Shown piece by piece: positions 2,266 to 35,878 of a DNA stretch of 64,000 nt. Made by a program: the position numbers and the translations under genes. Location of the stretch: contig JBGQBO010000007.1 in assembly GCA_041494885.1 (NCBI GenBank), positions 68,359-132,358 on the forward strand, read 5' to 3'. Positions within the stretch are counted from its first letter, which is position 1. The number at the start of each line of letters is the position of its first letter. This DNA is from Terriglobia bacterium. Its GTDB lineage: Bacteria > Acidobacteriota > Terriglobia > JAIQFV01. The notes below the pieces were generated by a model that searched no databases, was not told the origin of the DNA, and worked only from the letters and a program-made list of their open reading frames with translations.

Positions 2266-2532
2266 AAAGCCGCCGTCGATTCGGGACAGTGGCTGCTCTA
2301 TCGCTATCACCCCGATCGCGCGAAGCAGGGCGAGAATCCCATGATCCTCGACTCTCGGCCTCCCAAGATTCCCTTGCAGGATTATCTGTACATGGAAAAC
2401 AGATTCAAAATGCTGACCAAAATCAAACCCGATGAAGCAACCCGGTTGCTGAAGCGGGCTCAGGAAGACGTCCAGACACGCTGGCGCCTTTATGAGTACA
2501 TGGCGGCGAGGAAGGTGGAGAACAAAGTTTAA
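2266..2532 (+). other. In-frame continuation of the PFOR C-terminal domain after the TAG (KAAVDSGQWLLYRYHPD...YEYMAARKVENKV). It is either a readthrough or pseudogenised tail, or the TAG is a sequencing error.
   Basis: Same frame as the PFOR ORF. The translation matches the conserved PFOR C-terminal extension (..QQKAAVDSGYWPLYRYNP.. in characterised PFORs). The TAG sits where a Gln (CAG) is expected. Confidence 0.6.
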
Positions 2533-3136
2533 AGTTCAAAGTTCAAGGCTCAAAGTTAAGGGCTTACTGACCGGATGTTCAATGCTTCCAGGCGAGTCAT
2601 TTTGTCTCGTCAGCCGACTTTTTAGAGGCTCTGCAACGTGACAAAAATCGAGAGGTTTGAGGACATCGAGGCTTGGAAACGGGCAAGAGAGTTGGTGTCA
2701 GACATCTATCGAATTAGCTCGACGGGTAAGTTCAATAGGGATTTCTCACTTCGCGACCAGATGCGAAGTGCCTGCATCTCAATTCTGTCCAATATTGCAG
2801 AGGGCTTTGAACGAGGTGGAAACAGGGAGTTCTTACAGTTCCTCGCTTTCGCAAAGGGATCCGCCGGGGAGCTCAGGGCACAGCTTTATATAGCTCTGGA
2901 CCAACAATATATCGCTCACGATGAGTTCGAGAGAATCGCAGGTAAGATCATGGAAGTGAGCCGAATGCTTTCCGGCTTGATGAAATACCTGCAATCGTCG
3001 GAATTGCAAGGGACCAAATATAAATCGGTCTCTGAGCCGTAGAGGGAATTGTTTCTATTATGATTATTGAATCTCAAACTGGAACTTTGAACTAGGGGTT
3101 CCGACTTTGAACTTTGAACTTGGAACTTTGAACTCT
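2527..3136. repeat. Palindromic element 1. Inverted arrays of 7-bp tandem repeats (AAAGTTC units on the left, GAACTTT units on the right) flank a four-helix-bundle gene. It is inserted between PFOR and the DHOD-like gene.
   Basis: Left arm 2527-2560: aaagttcaaagttcaaggctcaaagtt. Right arm 3073-3136: ctggaactttgaactaggggttccgactttgaactttgaacttggaactttgaactc. This is its imperfect reverse complement. Confidence 0.8.
2638..3042 (+). CDS. Four-helix-bundle protein (PF05635 / TIGR02436, the 23S rRNA intervening-sequence protein family, Avd-like).
   Basis: 134-aa ORF with GTG start. Family-typical motifs are WKRARELVSDIYRIS, ...SNIAEGFERGGNREFLQFLAFAKGSAGELRAQLYIA. It lies between the inverted heptamer arrays. 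Confidence 0.8.
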   Translation: MTKIERFEDIEAWKRARELVSDIYRISSTGKFNRDFSLRDQMRSACISILSNIAEGFERGGNREFLQFLAFAKGSAGELRAQLYIALDQQYIAHDEFERIAGKIMEVSRMLSGLMKYLQSSELQGTKYKSVSEP

Positions 3137-3149
3137 TAGAGGAAAAACC

Positions 3150-4145
3150 ATGGACCTATCAACCACATATCTCGGCTTAAAACTCCGCACTCCGCTCGTT
3201 CCCTCGGCTTCGCCGCTTTCACAGGAGATTGACAACATCAAACGAATGGAGGACGCGGGCGCATCGGCGGTTGTCCTCCATTCGCTTTTTGAGGAGCAGT
3301 TGAGACAGGAGCGTTTTGAACTGCATCATCATCTCACCCAGGGGACCGAGAGTTTTGCTGAAGCCCTAACGTACTTCCCAGAGCCCGAAGAATTCCATCT
3401 CGGCCCCGATGCGTATCTGGAACACATCCGGAAGGCGAAAGAAGCCACCCGCATTCCCATCATTGCAAGCCTGAATGGAACCTCGGTCAGCGGTTGGACG
3501 GATTACGCCCGAAAGATAGAGGAGGCGGGGGCCGATGCCCTGGAATTGAACGTCTATTACATCCCCACCGATACGGATTTGAGTTCGGTTCAAGTCGAGC
3601 AAACCTACATTGATATCTTGAGGGCCGTCAAGTACGTCGTAAAAATCCCCGTGGCGTTCAAGCTGGGACCCTTCTTCAGCAACATGGCGAACATGGCCCG
3701 CCGCCTGGAGCAAGCCGGAGCCAACGGATTGGTTCTTTTCAATCGATTTTATCAACCGGACATCGACCTTGAAGAACTCGAAGTCAGGCCGAACGTCCTT
3801 TTGAGTACACCGCAGGCCCTGCGATTGCCGATGCGATGGATAGCGATCTTGTACGGACGTCTGCAATTGAGCTTTGCGGCTACCAGTGGCGTTCATGGCG
3901 CCCAGGATGCACTGAAAATGCTTATGGTCGGCGCCAGTGTGACCATGCTTTGCTCCGTTCTCTTCCGCGCGGGAATCGACCAGATCCGGACGATTGAGCA
4001 GGACATGCGTCAATGGATGGAAGACCACCAGTACGAATCGGTTCAACAGATGCAAGGGAGCATGAGCCAGAAGAATTGTGCCGATCCGGCCGCCTTCGAA
4101 CGTGCGCAGTACATGCGCGCTATCAAGAGCTATGTGCCGGCCTGA
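3150..4145 (+). CDS. Dihydroorotate dehydrogenase-like TIM-barrel flavoprotein (DHOD/DHPD family, function unassigned).
   Basis: 331-aa ORF with RBS ggaaaaacc before the ATG. Motifs RIPIIASLNG, ADALELNVYY, GVHGAQDALKMLMVGASVTMLCSVLF resemble class-1 DHOD-like proteins. It lies between PFOR and hypD. Confidence 0.55.
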   Translation: MDLSTTYLGLKLRTPLVPSASPLSQEIDNIKRMEDAGASAVVLHSLFEEQLRQERFELHHHLTQGTESFAEALTYFPEPEEFHLGPDAYLEHIRKAKEATRIPIIASLNGTSVSGWTDYARKIEEAGADALELNVYYIPTDTDLSSVQVEQTYIDILRAVKYVVKIPVAFKLGPFFSNMANMARRLEQAGANGLVLFNRFYQPDIDLEELEVRPNVLLSTPQALRLPMRWIAILYGRLQLSFAATSGVHGAQDALKMLMVGASVTMLCSVLFRAGIDQIRTIEQDMRQWMEDHQYESVQQMQGSMSQKNCADPAAFERAQYMRAIKSYVPA

Positions 4146-4281
4146 GAGACCTTTCGGAATGCCGTGGATCCCGGTGATTTCACCCGAATTGTAGAGCCCC
4201 GGGCAAGGGGTCGCTCGCGCCAGGAGAGGATGAACTCTCAATTCCCCGGTATATGGGAATGAGCCTGGCTGAGGGGGGGTT

Positions 4282-5400
4282 ATGAAATTCATCGATGAGT
4301 ACCGTGATCGCAAGGCAGCGGGGCAATTCTCGAAGGCGATTGCCAGCATGGCGACGAAGCCCTGGACGCTGATGGAGGTTTGCGGGGGCCAGACCCACTC
4401 CATCGTGAAGTTCGGCGTGGATGAATTACTCCCCAAAGACGTCACCCTGGTGCATGGTCCCGGCTGCCCGGTCTGTGTCACACCGGTCGAACTGATCGAA
4501 AAAGCGATCGAGATCGCCTCTCGCCCCGAGGTGATTTTTTGCTCCTTCGGCGACATGCTGCGCGTGCCTGCCCATGTGGGAAGTGGTCAGGAAGCTCCCG
4601 TTGATCTTCTTTCAATCAAGGCGAAGGGAGGCGATGTCCGGATCGTTTATTCCCCGCTGGATGCGATCAAGATTGCCAGCGCTCACCCCTCAAAGCAAGT
4701 CGTGTTCTTTGCGGTGGGATTTGAAACCACCGCCCCCGCTAATGCCATGGCCGTCTTCCAGGCCTACCAGCAAGGCATCGGGAATTTTTCACTCCTCGTT
4801 TCACACGTGCTGGTGCCCCCCGCGATGGAGGCCATCCTGTCTTCTCCGGACAATCGGGTGCAGGGATTTCTTGCGGCCGGACATGTGTGCACGGTGATGG
4901 GGTATACCGAGTACGAGCCCATTGCCAAAAAATATCACGTGCCCATCGTGGTCACAGGCTTCGAGCCGGTGGACATCCTGCAGGGCATCTACCTCTGCAT
5001 TAAGCAGTTGGAGGAGGGACGGGCAGAAGTGGAAAACCAATATGTCCGGGCCGTTCGTCGCGGAGGCAATCGGGCAGCGCAGCAGATCATTCACGAGGTG
5101 TTTCGAGTGGTGCCTCGCAAGTGGCGGGGCGTCGGCGAAATCCCTCAAAGCGGACTGGCTCTGCAGGAAAAATACGCTGAGTTTGACGCGGAACTTCGCT
5201 TTGGGGTCGCTCAACACACGACGGAAGAATCCACCGAATGTATCGCCGGCCTGGTTCTGCAAGGAATCAAGAAACCTCACGAATGCCCGGCCTTCGGCGC
5301 ACACTGCACGCCGGAACGCCCCCTGGGGGCACCCATGGTCTCCTCGGAGGGCGCCTGCGCGGCGTATTATCGATATCGTCGGCTTTCTTGCAGGAACTGA
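4282..5400 (+). CDS. hypD: [NiFe]-hydrogenase maturation factor HypD.
   Basis: 372-aa ORF with HypD signature motifs [14 protein letters not shown] and C-terminal [11 protein letters not shown]...EGACAAYY. Confidence 0.9.
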
Positions 5401-5429
5401 GAACGAAGCCGGAGACTGGAAAACGGAGG

Positions 5430-5982
5430 CCAGAAGTCAGAAGCCAGAAGTCGGAAGTCAGAGGTCGGAGGTCGGAAACCAGAAGTCAGAGGTCAGAGGT
5501 CAGAGAAAGAACCAATCTCTTTACCAGGGTGGGAAATAAGAAAGGACATTGATAAAATCATACAAGGATCTCCATGTGTATCAACTTTCGTATCGCCTTG
5601 CCATGAAGGTATTCATCGCGTCGAAAGGATTTCCCAAGGACGAATTGAATTCTCTGACGAATCAAATACGTCGGTCTTCTCGGTCGGTCGCGGCTAACAT
5701 AGTAGAGGGGTGGGCAAAACGGGGGTTCGAAAACATATTTAAGCGTCACCTGATCGATTCATTTGGATCTTGCGCCGAAACAAAACTCTGGCTGGATTTT
5801 GCTCGCGACTGCAACTACCTTTCGAGGGATGATCACTCAACGCTCGAGGGGGAATATGAAGAGTTGAGCAAAATGCTTCACCGTCTTTTTGAAAGCTGGG
5901 AAACCTACAATGTTAAGTAGTTCCCTTCCCCAGAATCCCTCAGTTGAGGGTCGGACTTCTGACTTCCGACCTCTGACTTCGG
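5430..5982. repeat. Palindromic element 2. Inverted arrays of 7-bp tandem repeats (CAGAAGT/CAGAGGT, about 11 units, on the left; GACTTCT/GACCTCT, about 4 units, on the right) flank a second four-helix-bundle gene. It is inserted between hypD and hypE.
   Basis: Left arm 5430-5505: ccagaagtcagaagccagaagtcggaagtcagaggtcggaggtcggaaaccagaagtcagaggtcagaggtcagag. Right arm 5949-5982: ggtcggacttctgacttccgacctctgacttcgg. This is its reverse complement. Confidence 0.8.
5549..5920 (+). CDS. Four-helix-bundle protein (PF05635 / 23S rRNA IVS protein family), second copy.
   Basis: 123-aa ORF with TTG start and RBS aaagga. Motifs YQLSYRLAMKVF, ...RSSRSVAANIVEGWAKRG...FGSCAETKLWLDFA. Confidence 0.8.
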   Translation: MIKSYKDLHVYQLSYRLAMKVFIASKGFPKDELNSLTNQIRRSSRSVAANIVEGWAKRGFENIFKRHLIDSFGSCAETKLWLDFARDCNYLSRDDHSTLEGEYEELSKMLHRLFESWETYNVK

Positions 5983-6007
5983 CCCCGATACGTCCAGCCC
6001 TTCGTCC

Positions 6008-7111
6008 TTGGAGCACGCATCCATGAACCCTAAGGACTCCCAGTTCGCCCTTTCCTGTCCCATCCCTCTCTCCGACTACCCGACTGTTCTGCTGGCTCAT
6101 GGAGGCGGGGGGAAGTTGATGCATCAGCTCATTGAAAAAATGTTTGTCAGCACTTTTGCAAATCCCCTTCTTGAATCGCGGCATGACGGGGCTGTCATTG
6201 AATTGGAGCAAAACGTAAAGCAGGGATTTCCCCGCCTGGCATTTACGACAGATTCTTACGTCGTGCATCCGCTTTTCTTTCCGGGCGGAGACATCGCTAC
6301 ACTGGCAGTCAATGGCACCGTTAACGATCTCGCGATGTGCGGCGCCCGCCCGTTGTACCTAAGTGCGGGTTTCATTCTTGAAGAGGGCCTCCCCATGGAA
6401 ACCCTGTGGCGGGTCGTCCGTTCCATGCGGGAGGCAGCGGATCTGGCCAGGGTACAAGTGGTGACGGGGGACACCAAGGTGGTCGATCGAGGCAAGGGGG
6501 ACGGCATTTTCATCAATACGGCCGGGATCGGAATAATCGAGCACAAGCGATCGATCAGCCCGGCCAATGTTCAACCGGGAGATGTGCTTCTCCTCAATGG
6601 AGACCTGGGCCGACATGGAATTGCGATCATGGCGGTCCGCGAAGGGCTCGAATTTGAGTCGGCGATTGAAAGCGATTGTGCTCCCCTCGCCCGCCCGGTT
6701 CTGGCGCTGCTCGACGCGGGAATCGAGGTGCACTGCATGCGAGATCTGACGCGCGGAGGTCTTGCCAGCGCCCTCGTGGAAATTTCAGAAGCCGGCGGTC
6801 TCAACATCCAGATCGATGAGAATGCCATCCCGGTTCGAGAAGACGTTCAGGGAGCCTGCGAGATCCTCGGGTTCGATCCTCTTTACGTCGCCAACGAGGG
6901 AAGGTTCGTCGCCTTCCTCGCACCATCCGATGCCGACCGCGCCCTGACTCTTCTTCGTGCCCATCCCCTCGGCGAGGGAGCATGTATCATCGGGAAGGTT
7001 GCGGCGACGAACGGCTCGTCCCGTGGAGGCCTCGTGACCATGAGAAGTAAAATTGGCGTTCTTCGTATTGTCGACATGATGAGCGGCGAGCAGCTGCCGA
7101 GAATTTGTTGA
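6008..7111 (+). CDS. hypE: Hydrogenase maturation carbamoyl dehydratase HypE.
   Basis: 367-aa [11 protein letters not shown] near the N-terminus, AIR-synthase-like domains, and the C-terminus ends with the HypE-specific PRIC. Confidence 0.9.
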
Positions 7112-7298
7112 CCTTCAAAGTGAACGACGAATCCAATCGCAACGATCGTCGCCCTTGAAACATTCCGCGCCATCTTTCATTGGATAACTGATTCCTCTCC
7201 TAGTCCCGACATGAATTGTGAAGAGACTCAAATCCGTCTTGTAACCGGAGCGCTGGCAAGCGGATTTTGGAGGACAACTCAAGAGATTTGATGTCCGC

Positions 7299-8699
7299 AT
7301 GCTAAAACTCAACGCGTCACTCCAGCTCCGTGTGAGAGTTCGCCGCGGGAACGAGCCTGATCCTGAGGGGAGGTGCGTTGTGTACTGGATGCAGCGGGCA
7401 CAGCGTGCCGCGGGTAATCCGGCGCTGGATGCGGCCATCGAGATTGCGAACGCGCTGCACAAGCCAGTCGTTGCTTTCTTGGGCCTGGTTCCCTTCTATC
7501 CCCATGCCAACCTCCGACACTATCAATTCCTTGTCGCTGGACTCGACGACATTGCCACGGGTCTCAAGGCGCGGAGGGTGGGGTTTGTGTTACGGCGATA
7601 CCCCCATCACCGCCTGGAGCAGTTCTGTGAGGAAGTGCACCCGGCGATCGTGATAGGCGATGAGAACCCTCTTCGCGATCCCGAACGTTGGCGTCAAGAA
7701 CTGGCCGGTCGTCTTCGTACCCCGCTATGGACGGTTGATGCCGATGTCGTCGTCCCCTCCGCTTTGCTTGAGAAGGAACAGTACGCGGCCCGGACCATTC
7801 GCCCCCGGATTCACGCCCAACTCCCTCACTTTCTAAAGGAGATTCCGGACAATACCGCCCATGTCACATGGGATCCCAGGCACCACGCTCAATCTCTTCG
7901 TCCCGAAGAGGGTTTACTTAAGGGATTCCCCGTGGACAGAACCGTCCAGCCGGTCACTGGCTTTGGCGGAGGGACTCAGGAGGCGCTGGCCGTGCTCAAG
8001 GGGTTCGTACGCGACCGGCTCAAGGGATATGGTGAGCAGAGAAACAAGCCCGAACTCGACGGCACCAGTCAGCTCTCCCCCTATCTTCATTTTGGTCACC
8101 TCAGCCCCGTGACTGTTGCCGTCGCCGTCCGGAAGGCCGATGCTCCTCAAAGTGACCGGGAGGCTTTTCTTGAAGAACTAATCGTAAGGCGAGAATTGGC
8201 CATTAACTTTGTCCGATTCAATCCGCGATATGACCAACTGAAAGGCTGTGAACCTTGGGCTCTCCGTTCTTTGAAAGCTCATTCGCCGGATCATCGAACG
8301 CACCGATACTCTGAGCGGCAACTTGAAAATGCGGAGACCCATGATCCTTTGTGGAATGCTGCACAAAAACAGATGGTGCTGACAGGCTGGATGCATGGCT
8401 ACCTGCGAATGTACTGGGCAAAGAAGATTCTGGAATGGAGCCCTGCACCGGGAAGAGCATTCGAAGTTGCCGTGCGGTTGAATGACCGCTACCAACTTGA
8501 CGGCCGCGACCCCAATGGATACGCGGGAATTGCCTGGGCGATCGGCGGGAAACATGACCGGGCCTGGGGACCAGAACGGCCCGTTTATGGAAAAGTCCGT
8601 TACATGTCTTATGAAAGCACTTCACGCAAGTTCGACAGCCGGCGATATATTGCCAACATCATGAAGTTGGAGCAACGAGGATCCGGTGGGTTTTATTGA
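7299..8699 (+). CDS. phr: Deoxyribodipyrimidine photolyase, class II CPD type.
   Basis: 466-aa ORF with VVYWMQRAQRA at the N-terminus and class II photolyase motifs LSPYLHFGHLSP, WMHGYLRMYWAKKILEW. Confidence 0.85.
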   Translation: MLKLNASLQLRVRVRRGNEPDPEGRCVVYWMQRAQRAAGNPALDAAIEIANALHKPVVAFLGLVPFYPHANLRHYQFLVAGLDDIATGLKARRVGFVLRRYPHHRLEQFCEEVHPAIVIGDENPLRDPERWRQELAGRLRTPLWTVDADVVVPSALLEKEQYAARTIRPRIHAQLPHFLKEIPDNTAHVTWDPRHHAQSLRPEEGLLKGFPVDRTVQPVTGFGGGTQEALAVLKGFVRDRLKGYGEQRNKPELDGTSQLSPYLHFGHLSPVTVAVAVRKADAPQSDREAFLEELIVRRELAINFVRFNPRYDQLKGCEPWALRSLKAHSPDHRTHRYSERQLENAETHDPLWNAAQKQMVLTGWMHGYLRMYWAKKILEWSPAPGRAFEVAVRLNDRYQLDGRDPNGYAGIAWAIGGKHDRAWGPERPVYGKVRYMSYESTSRKFDSRRYIANIMKLEQRGSGGFY

Positions 8700-26866: not shown

Positions 26867-27266
26867 CAACTTCTGTCTTCCATTTTCAGGGGGTGAACTT
26901 CCGTTCACTCCCTTTTGATTTTCCGGAAGAGTCCAAAACAGGGAAGATTAAGAGGGAGGTGATTTGGACGCCCGAGGGTCCGGCCTCAAGATGCAGGGAA
27001 GTTTTCTCCCAGCCTCTGGAAAATTAACTCCGCCCAGTACAAACTGACAAATAGTCAGAAGAATCCCTGTGAGCGCTGGAGCAAATAGCGCCTTGCGCCC
27101 CCCTTCCGGAAGCGTCCGCTCCGCCTTTCGCAGATCCTTACCAGCCGAATGAATGGCAAGTTTGCCGGTTTATTCCGCAATCCGAAATCCGCAATCCCCA
27201 ATGAAAGAGTACCTCGCACGAAACCATCGGATCGGGTTGTTCTCCGAAAATTCAATCAACTCATCC

Positions 27267-35692: not shown

Positions 35693-35878
35693 TGTCAGCT
35701 ATCAGCGATCAGCTATCAGTCCTTCAGTAATTTTCTTTGAAGAAGAAAGCGATCGGGCCTCAGTAACAACTATAAACTTAAAGCAAAACCCGTCTTCAGG
35801 GTTGATGGCTGATAACTGATTGCTGATAGCTGACGGCTGATTGCTGATAGCTGAAAGCTGACCACTGATAGCTGACCT
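35693..35878. repeat. Palindromic element 3. Inverted arrays of 7-bp tandem repeats (CAGCTAT / CTGATAG-type units) around a roughly 80-bp core with no gene.
   Basis: Left arm cagctatcagcgatcagctatcagtcc. Right arm ggctgataactgattgctgatagctgacggctgattgctgatagctgaaagctgaccactgatagctgacc. It sits between yicC and the msbA-like gene. Confidence 0.75.

Follow-up and report, generated by a model that had tools for sequence, protein, structure and literature searches.

Coxiella's intervening sequence (IVS) carries an S23p open reading frame (ORF) flanked by complementary ends and is cut out by RNase III (PMC4990558). Here we analyse a cassette of similar build, a small gene bracketed by inverted arrays of 7-nt units, which lies between hypD and hypE in a 64,000-nt stretch from a Terriglobia bacterium (Acidobacteriota; assembly GCA_041494885.1, contig JBGQBO010000007.1, positions 68,359 to 132,358), the whole of which is hereafter the window. 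We refer to this cassette as element 2; a similar one, element 1, precedes it in the same window. The ORF-bearing 23S rRNA IVSs of Leptospira, Coxiella and Brucella share with element 2 the protein family PF05635, the placement of a small ORF within complementary, stem-forming ends, the location inside a host transcript and the lack of a transposase. Nevertheless, the host of an IVS is a helix of 23S or 16S rRNA, whereas element 2 occupies an mRNA operon spacer between two protein genes, and the apparently unique inverted repeat of IVSs contrasts with its tandem 7-nt arrays. Besides, the Coxiella ORF is decaying, unlike the element 1 gene, whose dN/dS is about 0.1.

Short tandemly repeated repetitive (STRR) heptamers able to form hairpins have been described in filamentous cyanobacteria, for instance between hupS and hupL, with no known function (PMC2670836). 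As in element 2, these are hairpin-capable 7-bp tandem units located in operon spacers, those of hydrogenase operons included. However, STRRs are repeats alone in filamentous cyanobacteria, whereas the arrays reported here bracket a gene, are found in Acidobacteriota and other phyla and have a unit that tracks the protein subfamily. Furthermore, within a genome STRRs form a dispersed family with the same unit, whereas the four arrays or array pairs of the window, which covers 64 kb of the genome only, use four different units. A third comparison is provided by the Avd protein of diversity-generating retroelements (DGRs), a pentamer with the same fold as the element-2 protein. Avd binds structured RNA via repeated contacts in inter-protomer crevices, and the sequences up- and downstream of the DGR template pair with each other (bioRxiv 10.1101/2023.10.23.563531). 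DGRs are built on a reverse transcriptase and a template/variable repeat pair, which are missing from the neighbourhood of element 2. Finally, miniature inverted-repeat transposable elements (MITEs) and repetitive extragenic palindromic sequences with their mosaic derivatives (REP-BIMEs) resemble element 2 in being short and intergenic, with inverted symmetry, hairpin potential and no transposase of their own; element 2 differs from them in its tandem micro-arrays as arms, its conserved non-transposase gene and the lack of an identical multi-copy family in the window. The cassette combines known kinds, an IVS-type cassette and an STRR-type repeat, and is not categorically new. No paper tying PF05635 genes to flanking heptad arrays was found in the full-text literature searched, outside which lie most subscription journals and the database family descriptions, so that a prior mention is possible.

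The cassette between hypD and hypE

Element 2 fills the spacer from the hypD stop almost to the hypE start codon, and the region is made up as follows.

4282-5400, + strand: hypD, the upstream host gene (stop TGA 5398-5400; PF01924 E=4.2e-153)
5405-5505, + strand: left heptad array, purine-rich (core found by Tandem Repeats Finder, TRF, 5431-5504; 21-nt super-period)
5506-5548, + strand: leader (AAAGGA six nt before the TTG start)
5549-5920, + strand: four-helix-bundle gene, 123 aa, 23S_rRNA_IVP/S23p/Avd-like family (PF05635, TIGR02436)
5951-5985, + strand: right heptad array, reverse complement of the left (TRF core 5954-5980)
6023-7111, + strand: hypE, the downstream host gene (AIRS/AIRS_C domains; tblastn matches to hypE in relatives)

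Arrays were detected in the window with TRF, which returned a left array at 5431-5504 (period 7, 10.6 copies, consensus CAGAAGT) and a right array at 5954-5980 (period 7, 3.9 copies, consensus GACTTCT); together with the PF05635 match of the product, this bears out the preliminary description of this DNA, which had reported inverted heptamer arrays of about 11 and about 4 units around a 123-aa PF05635 gene. Read unit by unit, the left array consists of CAGAAGT, CAGAAGC, CGGAAGT, CAGAGGT and CGGAGGT and the right one of GACTTCT, GACTTCC and GACCTCT, and degenerate heptads carry the left array back to ~5405, five nt past the hypD stop. The arms are 92% complementary over 24 nt (5454-5477 versus 5957-5980) and 80% over 35 nt (5428-5462 versus 5951-5985). 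When one scoring rule was applied to the 64-kb window, period 7 gave seven array segments and periods 5, 6, 8, 9 and 10 none, and the same rule found zero segments in five shuffles of the window. The long arrays at 5426-5504 and 35803-35875, the latter belonging to a gene-less element described below, score higher in TRF when read as three-unit repeats (period 21) than as single units (period 7), which indicates expansion by three-unit blocks; 21 nt also correspond to seven codons and to roughly two B-DNA turns.

The TTG start at 5549 is supported by the homologues of the element-2 protein, which begin MIKSYKDL; an alternative public gene call starts at GTG 5576 (114 aa). The open frame of hypE begins at TTG 6008, but its start is most likely ATG 6023, which has GGAG nine nt upstream and is used in the public gene call (362 aa). 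Of the two spacers given in the preliminary description, the 148 nt between hypD and the gene are therefore exact, while the 87 nt between the gene and hypE hold only for TTG 6008 and become 102 nt with ATG 6023.

The element-2 protein matches PF05635 (E=1.6e-30, 105.8 bits, cut-off 33.8) and TIGR02436 (E=4.9e-28, 97.5 bits, cut-off 24), and its AlphaFold model (pLDDT 92.6) has four helices. Foldseek matched this model to 2GSC (TM 0.84-0.92), 2RLD (TM 0.74-0.88) and then Avd (4DWL; TM 0.74 with query and 0.85 with target normalisation). Both 2GSC and 2RLD belong to the S23 ribosomal protein family and each entry contains five chains of a single sequence; a Xanthomonas protein of the four-helix-bundle family has been described as a homopentamer, and the element-2 protein is probably a pentamer. 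Avd models stayed below cut-off: PF22296 (bAvd) gave 21.3 bits versus 40, its sub-threshold scores being 21 and 28 bits, and NF033474 matched element 1 only, with 26 bits versus 80. The proteins of elements 1 and 2 are 25% identical (phmmer E=1e-10) and have NIxEG and GSxxE motifs in common; being homologous and alike in layout, the two cassettes are, as had been proposed, copies of the same architecture. The anticipated conservation of shared motifs in both four-helix-bundle proteins was likewise recovered, except that they sit in helices 2 and 3 of the AlphaFold model and not in helices 2 and 4. The PF05635/TIGR02436 family is large, with thousands of homologues in one search, and its first structures were solved in 2006, yet to our knowledge it has no known function outside DGR Avd. 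No anti-phage defence model of PADLOC was matched by either four-helix-bundle protein. A large CRISPR survey (PMC10910872) lists '23S rRNA IVP' among novel CRISPR-associated proteins, a link that could partly reflect repeat detection because the genes are flanked by tandem repeat arrays.

A recurrent class in operon spacers

Element 2 is a member of a widespread class, present in several phyla in co-directional operon spacers, in which one four-helix-bundle gene lies between inverted arrays of a short unit, usually of 7 nt. An alignment of element-2 relatives, used as the query of a single metagenome scan, yielded 80 loci at 45-68% identity, whose 250-nt flanks were compared with 567 control segments drawn from these loci no nearer than 700 nt to the gene, counting the best tandem period at a score of at least 8. 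Period 7 was the best in 50/72 upstream and 48/76 downstream flanks versus 38/567 control segments. The consensus units of the two arms were reverse-complementary (at least 6/7) in 31 of 47 loci, with a purine fraction of 0.76 in the upstream arm and of 0.23 in the pyrimidine-rich downstream arm, and the upstream neighbour was co-directional in 53/61 loci according to a crude ORF heuristic. The consensus unit of the element-2 subfamily is CAGAAG[G/T] (CAGAAGK). Relatives of element 1 (six look-ups, 61-74% identity) all have period-7 arrays of CAA[A/G/T]GT[C/T], inverted downstream, and cassettes of this type lie between co-directional genes for a periplasmic binding protein and an ABC ATPase, an ornithine decarboxylase and a permease, or a CN hydrolase and an oxidoreductase. 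More distant subfamilies keep period 7 with GATTGCG, GTGAATK or TGAGTRC units. The more alike two proteins are, the more alike are their heptads (Mantel r=0.48, p=0.001), which, together with the conservation of the heptad within each subfamily, points to a constraint on the sequence that diverges in step with the protein. It had been argued from the unlike heptads of elements 1 and 2 that the architecture is kept and the repeat is not, so that the protein may read structure; the subfamily-specific heptads and the Mantel result do not support this view as it stands.

In the relatives of element 1, the upstream array often begins at or within the preceding stop codon, and the downstream one stops 4-10 nt short of the following ATG. 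Often the upstream array supplies the stop of the preceding gene, as at the junctions of L168, L172 and L177, and sometimes its last two or three codons, TAAGTCC being the first array unit in L172, and the end of the downstream array sometimes leaves no recognisable Shine-Dalgarno sequence. Array lengths (medians of 4.4 and 4.1 units, with a wide range) were uninformative as a signature of a pentamer.

The hypD-hypE junction itself was followed in 80 genome loci retrieved with HypD, 71 of which were informative, i.e. had hypE downstream on the same strand. In 59 of these 71, hypE follows hypD by no more than ~60 nt, in agreement with the earlier claim that the element splits a normally adjacent pair, and the gap is wider in the other 12. 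The inserts are varied: a further TIGR02436 gene, with GTGAATK on one side and the inverse unit on the other, in a member of the Chloroflexi, a GxxExxY gene between inverted repeats (7100-7620) in a member of the Holophagaceae (L065), inverted GATGAGR arrays without a gene in a member of the Planctomycetales (L039) and, in two larger gaps, a flavodoxin-domain gene and an AAA_14/DUF4143 ATPase gene. Even one of the 59 adjacent loci, from the Planctomycetaceae, has a solo TGAGTAC array directly past the hypD stop. Therefore, a compact junction is the norm, and it was colonised several times independently.

The GxxExxY proteins (TIGR04256, PD-(D/E)XK-like) form a parallel cassette class with an unrelated protein. 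Only six of their loci were inspected (including L065, L139 at 4700-5230, and L164-L167), with genes wedged between hypD and hypE (L065), fabD and fabG, radA and a gene for a FAD-dependent protein, or adenine deaminase and mannose-1-P guanylyltransferase genes. As in element 2, the gene lies between co-directional housekeeping genes and inverted tandem arrays; the fold is nevertheless unrelated to that of the four-helix-bundle cassettes and the units are of 9-10 nt (CRCAGAGGA/TCCTCTGYG, CACGAAAANN). Single-protein queries with the GxxExxY and element 1 proteins found no match in viral contigs.

Matches on cyanobacterial plasmids were mainly from Nostoc. Units of 8 nt (GCAGGGGA, GCAGAGGA) flank the four-helix-bundle genes of Nostoc punctiforme and Nostoc sp. 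C052, and this softened the idea of a period set by the cargo family. Plasmids gamma and alpha of Nostoc sp. PCC 7120 (L184 and L185) carry identical four-helix-bundle genes with a downstream CTTCTGC/CCTCTGC array only; on the upstream side they border, in gamma, on an ISL3-family transposase gene end and, in alpha, on a sequence nearly identical to this gene end, which suggests that these cassettes were secondarily disrupted. Such arrays flanking four-helix-bundle genes on Nostoc plasmids link the STRR and cassette phenomena.

Closely related genomes speak to the age of the cassette. The nearest one (L001), with a HypD 98.7% identical to that of the window, has both cassettes at the same sites, and its flanking DNA is 90-100% and its element 1 is 95% identical to the window. 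Only ~60% identity is found, however, between 5416-6045 of the window and 7130-7760 of L001, an interval that comprises both arrays, the gene and the first eight hypE codons. The arms changed jointly, from AGAAGTC/GACTTCT in the window to mostly AGAAGCC/GGCTTCT in L001; the two arms are homogenised together. A more distant relative (L180; HypD 88% identical) keeps the order hypF, hypC, pyruvate:ferredoxin oxidoreductase (PFOR) gene, four-helix-bundle gene, DHO_dh-family gene, hypD, four-helix-bundle gene, hypE as in the window, with element 1 and element 2 proteins 73% and 76% identical to ours and arrays of ~24 and ~9 units. As the element-2 protein of L001 is 60-62% identical to those of both the window and L180, which share 76%, the L001 allele was evidently replaced; rapid in-situ divergence as the source of this allele is ruled out by the same 76%. 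The replacement gave the L001 HypE the N-terminus MNFDDQSF... instead of MNPKDSQF...

L180 has gene and arms at this very position although its HypD has diverged to 88% identity; the cassette of the hypD-hypE junction is thus old and not a recent insertion. Relatives were also searched for the same spacer devoid of arms or gene, taken in the preliminary description as the mark of an ancestral intergenic gene, and none had it. The suggestion that the arms evolve by slippage is supported by a left array of ~11, 12 and 24 units in the three related genomes. Both cassette genes diverge faster than their neighbours. Between the window and L001, dN/dS is 0.105 for the element 1 gene (0.061 for hypD), indicating purifying selection in the one unsaturated comparison, whereas the comparison with L180 shows synonymous saturation of the cassette genes (hypD dS 0.89). 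The element 2 gene may also be functional, to judge from motif conservation, the sole guide where dS is saturated.

The window contains three other features of this kind, listed here with the parts of element 1.

2523-2564, + strand: left array of element 1, CAAAGTT x5-6 (the PFOR stop TAA lies inside the array)
2638-3042, + strand: four-helix-bundle gene of element 1, 134 aa (PF05635 E=7e-34)
3077-3136, + strand: right array of element 1, ACTTTGA x4.4 (TRF core 3104-3134; ends 14 nt before the next ATG)
27174-27202, + strand: solo array TCCGCAA x4, between convergent Mrp/ApbC-like and DUF1175 genes
35695-35875, - strand: gene-less inverted heptad element, CAGCTAT-type, filling the gap from an ABC transporter gene to a yicC-like endoribonuclease gene

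On the transcribed (-) strand, the gene-less element consists of ~10 units (35803-35875), an 83-nt spacer and 3.6 inverted units (35695-35719), so that the long arm comes first, as in element 2; this element and the gene-less arrays of L039 resemble STRRs. The solo array has no partner arm or four-helix-bundle gene nearby, and its TCCGCAA unit is that of the arrays around a third, distant four-helix-bundle subfamily in locus L156 (GATTGCG upstream, AATCYGM downstream). The 64-kb window holds no second copy with the element-2 unit.

These results join the PF05635/TIGR02436 proteins to STRR-type repeats and provide the former with a concrete partner in cis; we know of no explanation of the STRR heptamers since their first description. 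The class also explains four-helix-bundle genes wedged inside conserved operons. Cassettes of this sort lengthen intergenic gaps, provide neighbouring genes with stop codons and start regions and can mislead the annotation of operons and repeats. Cultured carriers exist, among them Nostoc punctiforme PCC 73102 (four-helix-bundle gene NPUN_RS36250) and Nostoc sp. PCC 7120 (PCC7120DELTA_RS00990).

Possible action of the arrays and their protein

The descriptive claims made so far are strong; those on mechanism we infer, and they fall a little short of an even chance. It is nearly as probable as not that element 2 is a long-lived, IVS-like cassette whose arms close a long stem in the mRNA of the operon and are recognised by the Avd-like protein that it encodes. 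The cassette would be transcribed by read-through from hypD, a step suggested by the predominantly co-directional upstream neighbours and by the lack of signals of its own: a scan for sigma-70-like promoters and intrinsic terminators on the + strand inside the elements was negative, and no conserved leader or promoter-like motif precedes the start codon across homologues. Rfam gave no match in 2300-6300. In the hypD-hypE transcript the arrays would then pair as a long imperfect stem looping out the ORF. The right array pairs with 5424-5467 in the minimum free energy (MFE) and centroid RNA folds, and each of the three elements of the window folds with a long-range stem, in the MFE as well as in the centroid structure (z=-2.6, -2.4 and, for the gene-less one, -5.05), the mean arm duplex energy being -38.6 kcal/mol. 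By analogy with IVSs, RNase III may cut the hypD-hypE mRNA around the cassette and so make the insertion tolerable; the presence of the same family in RNase III-cut 23S rRNA intervening sequences makes such processing the simplest mechanism. The protein, probably a pentamer, would by analogy with Avd bind its own repeat units, and the Avd contacts in successive inter-protomer crevices render array binding by a ring of this fold plausible.

A number of observations weigh against this explanation. Arm mismatches comprise 73 of the G·U type versus 73 of the A·C type, with no RNA-specific signal, and array-only duplex energy is equal on both strands (-38.6 versus -38.2 kcal/mol, p=0.53). The arms are only ~80% complementary, with many transversions. 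Pairing could therefore matter in DNA or be a by-product of arm copying. Conservation of the unit sequence also goes deeper than would be needed for a mere stem. Nor is the period universal, since 6, 8 and 9 occur (6 or 9 in L157 and L158; Nostoc plasmids). Neither a fresh insertion nor an empty site in a close relative nor a target-site duplication was seen, so that a 'selfish' or mobile nature has only the scattered distribution to speak for it; the boundaries of element 2, read by eye, had no direct repeat outside the arms. A duplex test on 200-nt flanks that gave p=0.013 for the coding strand was discounted, as its duplexes spanned non-array sequence.

It is tempting to go further and to propose a cognate recognition in which each protein subfamily reads its own 7-nt unit, one per protomer of the ring. 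The cassettes would then make up a hitherto unrecognised, phylum-spanning class of autonomous operon-spacer elements, with rRNA IVSs, STRR hairpins and GxxExxY/9-mer cassettes as special cases, derivatives or analogues, and their persistence could be enforced by making the expression of the downstream gene a hostage of the protein. We regard this extension as doubtful, though well within possibility; if the protein does read the heptads of its subfamily, it would constitute a natural, modular nucleic-acid recognition system.

A role at the DNA level is a serious rival, even if a rather unlikely one. The arrays would be iteron- or operator-like duplex sites for the four-helix-bundle oligomer, one unit per subunit, acting as terminal inverted repeats in recombination or mobility or as an autoregulatory operator, and the RNA hairpin would be incidental. 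The even split of mismatches and the equal duplex energies on both strands fit this possibility, as do a unit that is conserved within subfamilies and co-diverges with the protein, and the 21-nt super-period (three units, about two B-DNA turns) of two arrays. Successive dimers of the omega repressor of pSM19035 bind arrays of 7-bp heptads in this manner. However, no DNA-binding or recombinase activity is known for the four-helix-bundle family, and Avd, its only characterised relative, binds RNA and reverse transcriptase. Moreover, neither target-site duplication nor excision polymorphism was seen, both cassettes of the window have kept their positions over a HypD divergence of 12% or more, and no promoter-like site accompanies the arrays.

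Alternatively, the arrays could serve the host as operon punctuation, that is, as STRR-type hairpins that stabilise or uncouple the polycistronic mRNA, with the gene as a passenger or an accessory RNA chaperone. The gene-less versions at 35695-35875 and in the hypD-hypE gap of L039 would suit such a function, and so would the different cargo, GxxExxY, that occupies similar sites with inverted arrays of its own; the 7-bp STRR hairpins between hupS and hupL have indeed been proposed to act in transcript stability or translational coupling (PMC2670836). We nonetheless judge this unlikely: arrays are strongly enriched beside four-helix-bundle genes (~65-70% of flanks versus 7% of controls), subfamily-specific units are unexpected for a gene-independent host feature, and 59 of the 71 hypDE junctions do without a spacer of this kind.

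An ancestral gene of the ordinary intergenic kind, next to which repeats arose by neutral slippage with no functional link to it, would account for the age of the cassette at its site and for the drift in copy number, but it is very improbable and already largely contradicted by the flank statistics, leaving unexplained the inverted arms, their co-variation, unit conservation at ~50% protein identity and the recurrence in many phyla and contexts, while hypDE is compact in most lineages. The least credible proposal, that of an orphan avd surviving from a DGR whose reverse transcriptase and template repeat were lost, appeals to the sub-threshold PF22296 and NF033474 scores and to the structural similarity to Avd (TM 0.74/0.85), but is already contradicted by the genomic context (PFOR, DHO_dh-family gene, hypD, hypE and photolyase as neighbours, with no reverse transcriptase within several kb), by PF05635/TIGR02436 scores far above those of the Avd models and by the recurrence of the gene-plus-arrays unit in dozens of unrelated operon spacers.

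Minor observations at neighbouring genes

PFOR ends ...NKV-TAA inside the CAAAGTT units of element 1 (2523-2535). An in-frame TAG interrupts the same gene at 2263-2265 (...MHD*KAAVDSGQW...), where L001 and two other assemblies of the window sequence have CAG (Gln). These two assemblies match the window over 4-9 kb with position 2263 as the sole difference, and the TAG is either a single-base variant or error in the record, or a fresh nonsense mutation. Downstream of hypE, the photolyase gene (ORF 7299-8699) has lost most of its length in L001, from which 7298-8498 of the window is absent and only the last ~200 nt are kept; with the gene complete in L180, the loss is a deletion that L001 underwent.

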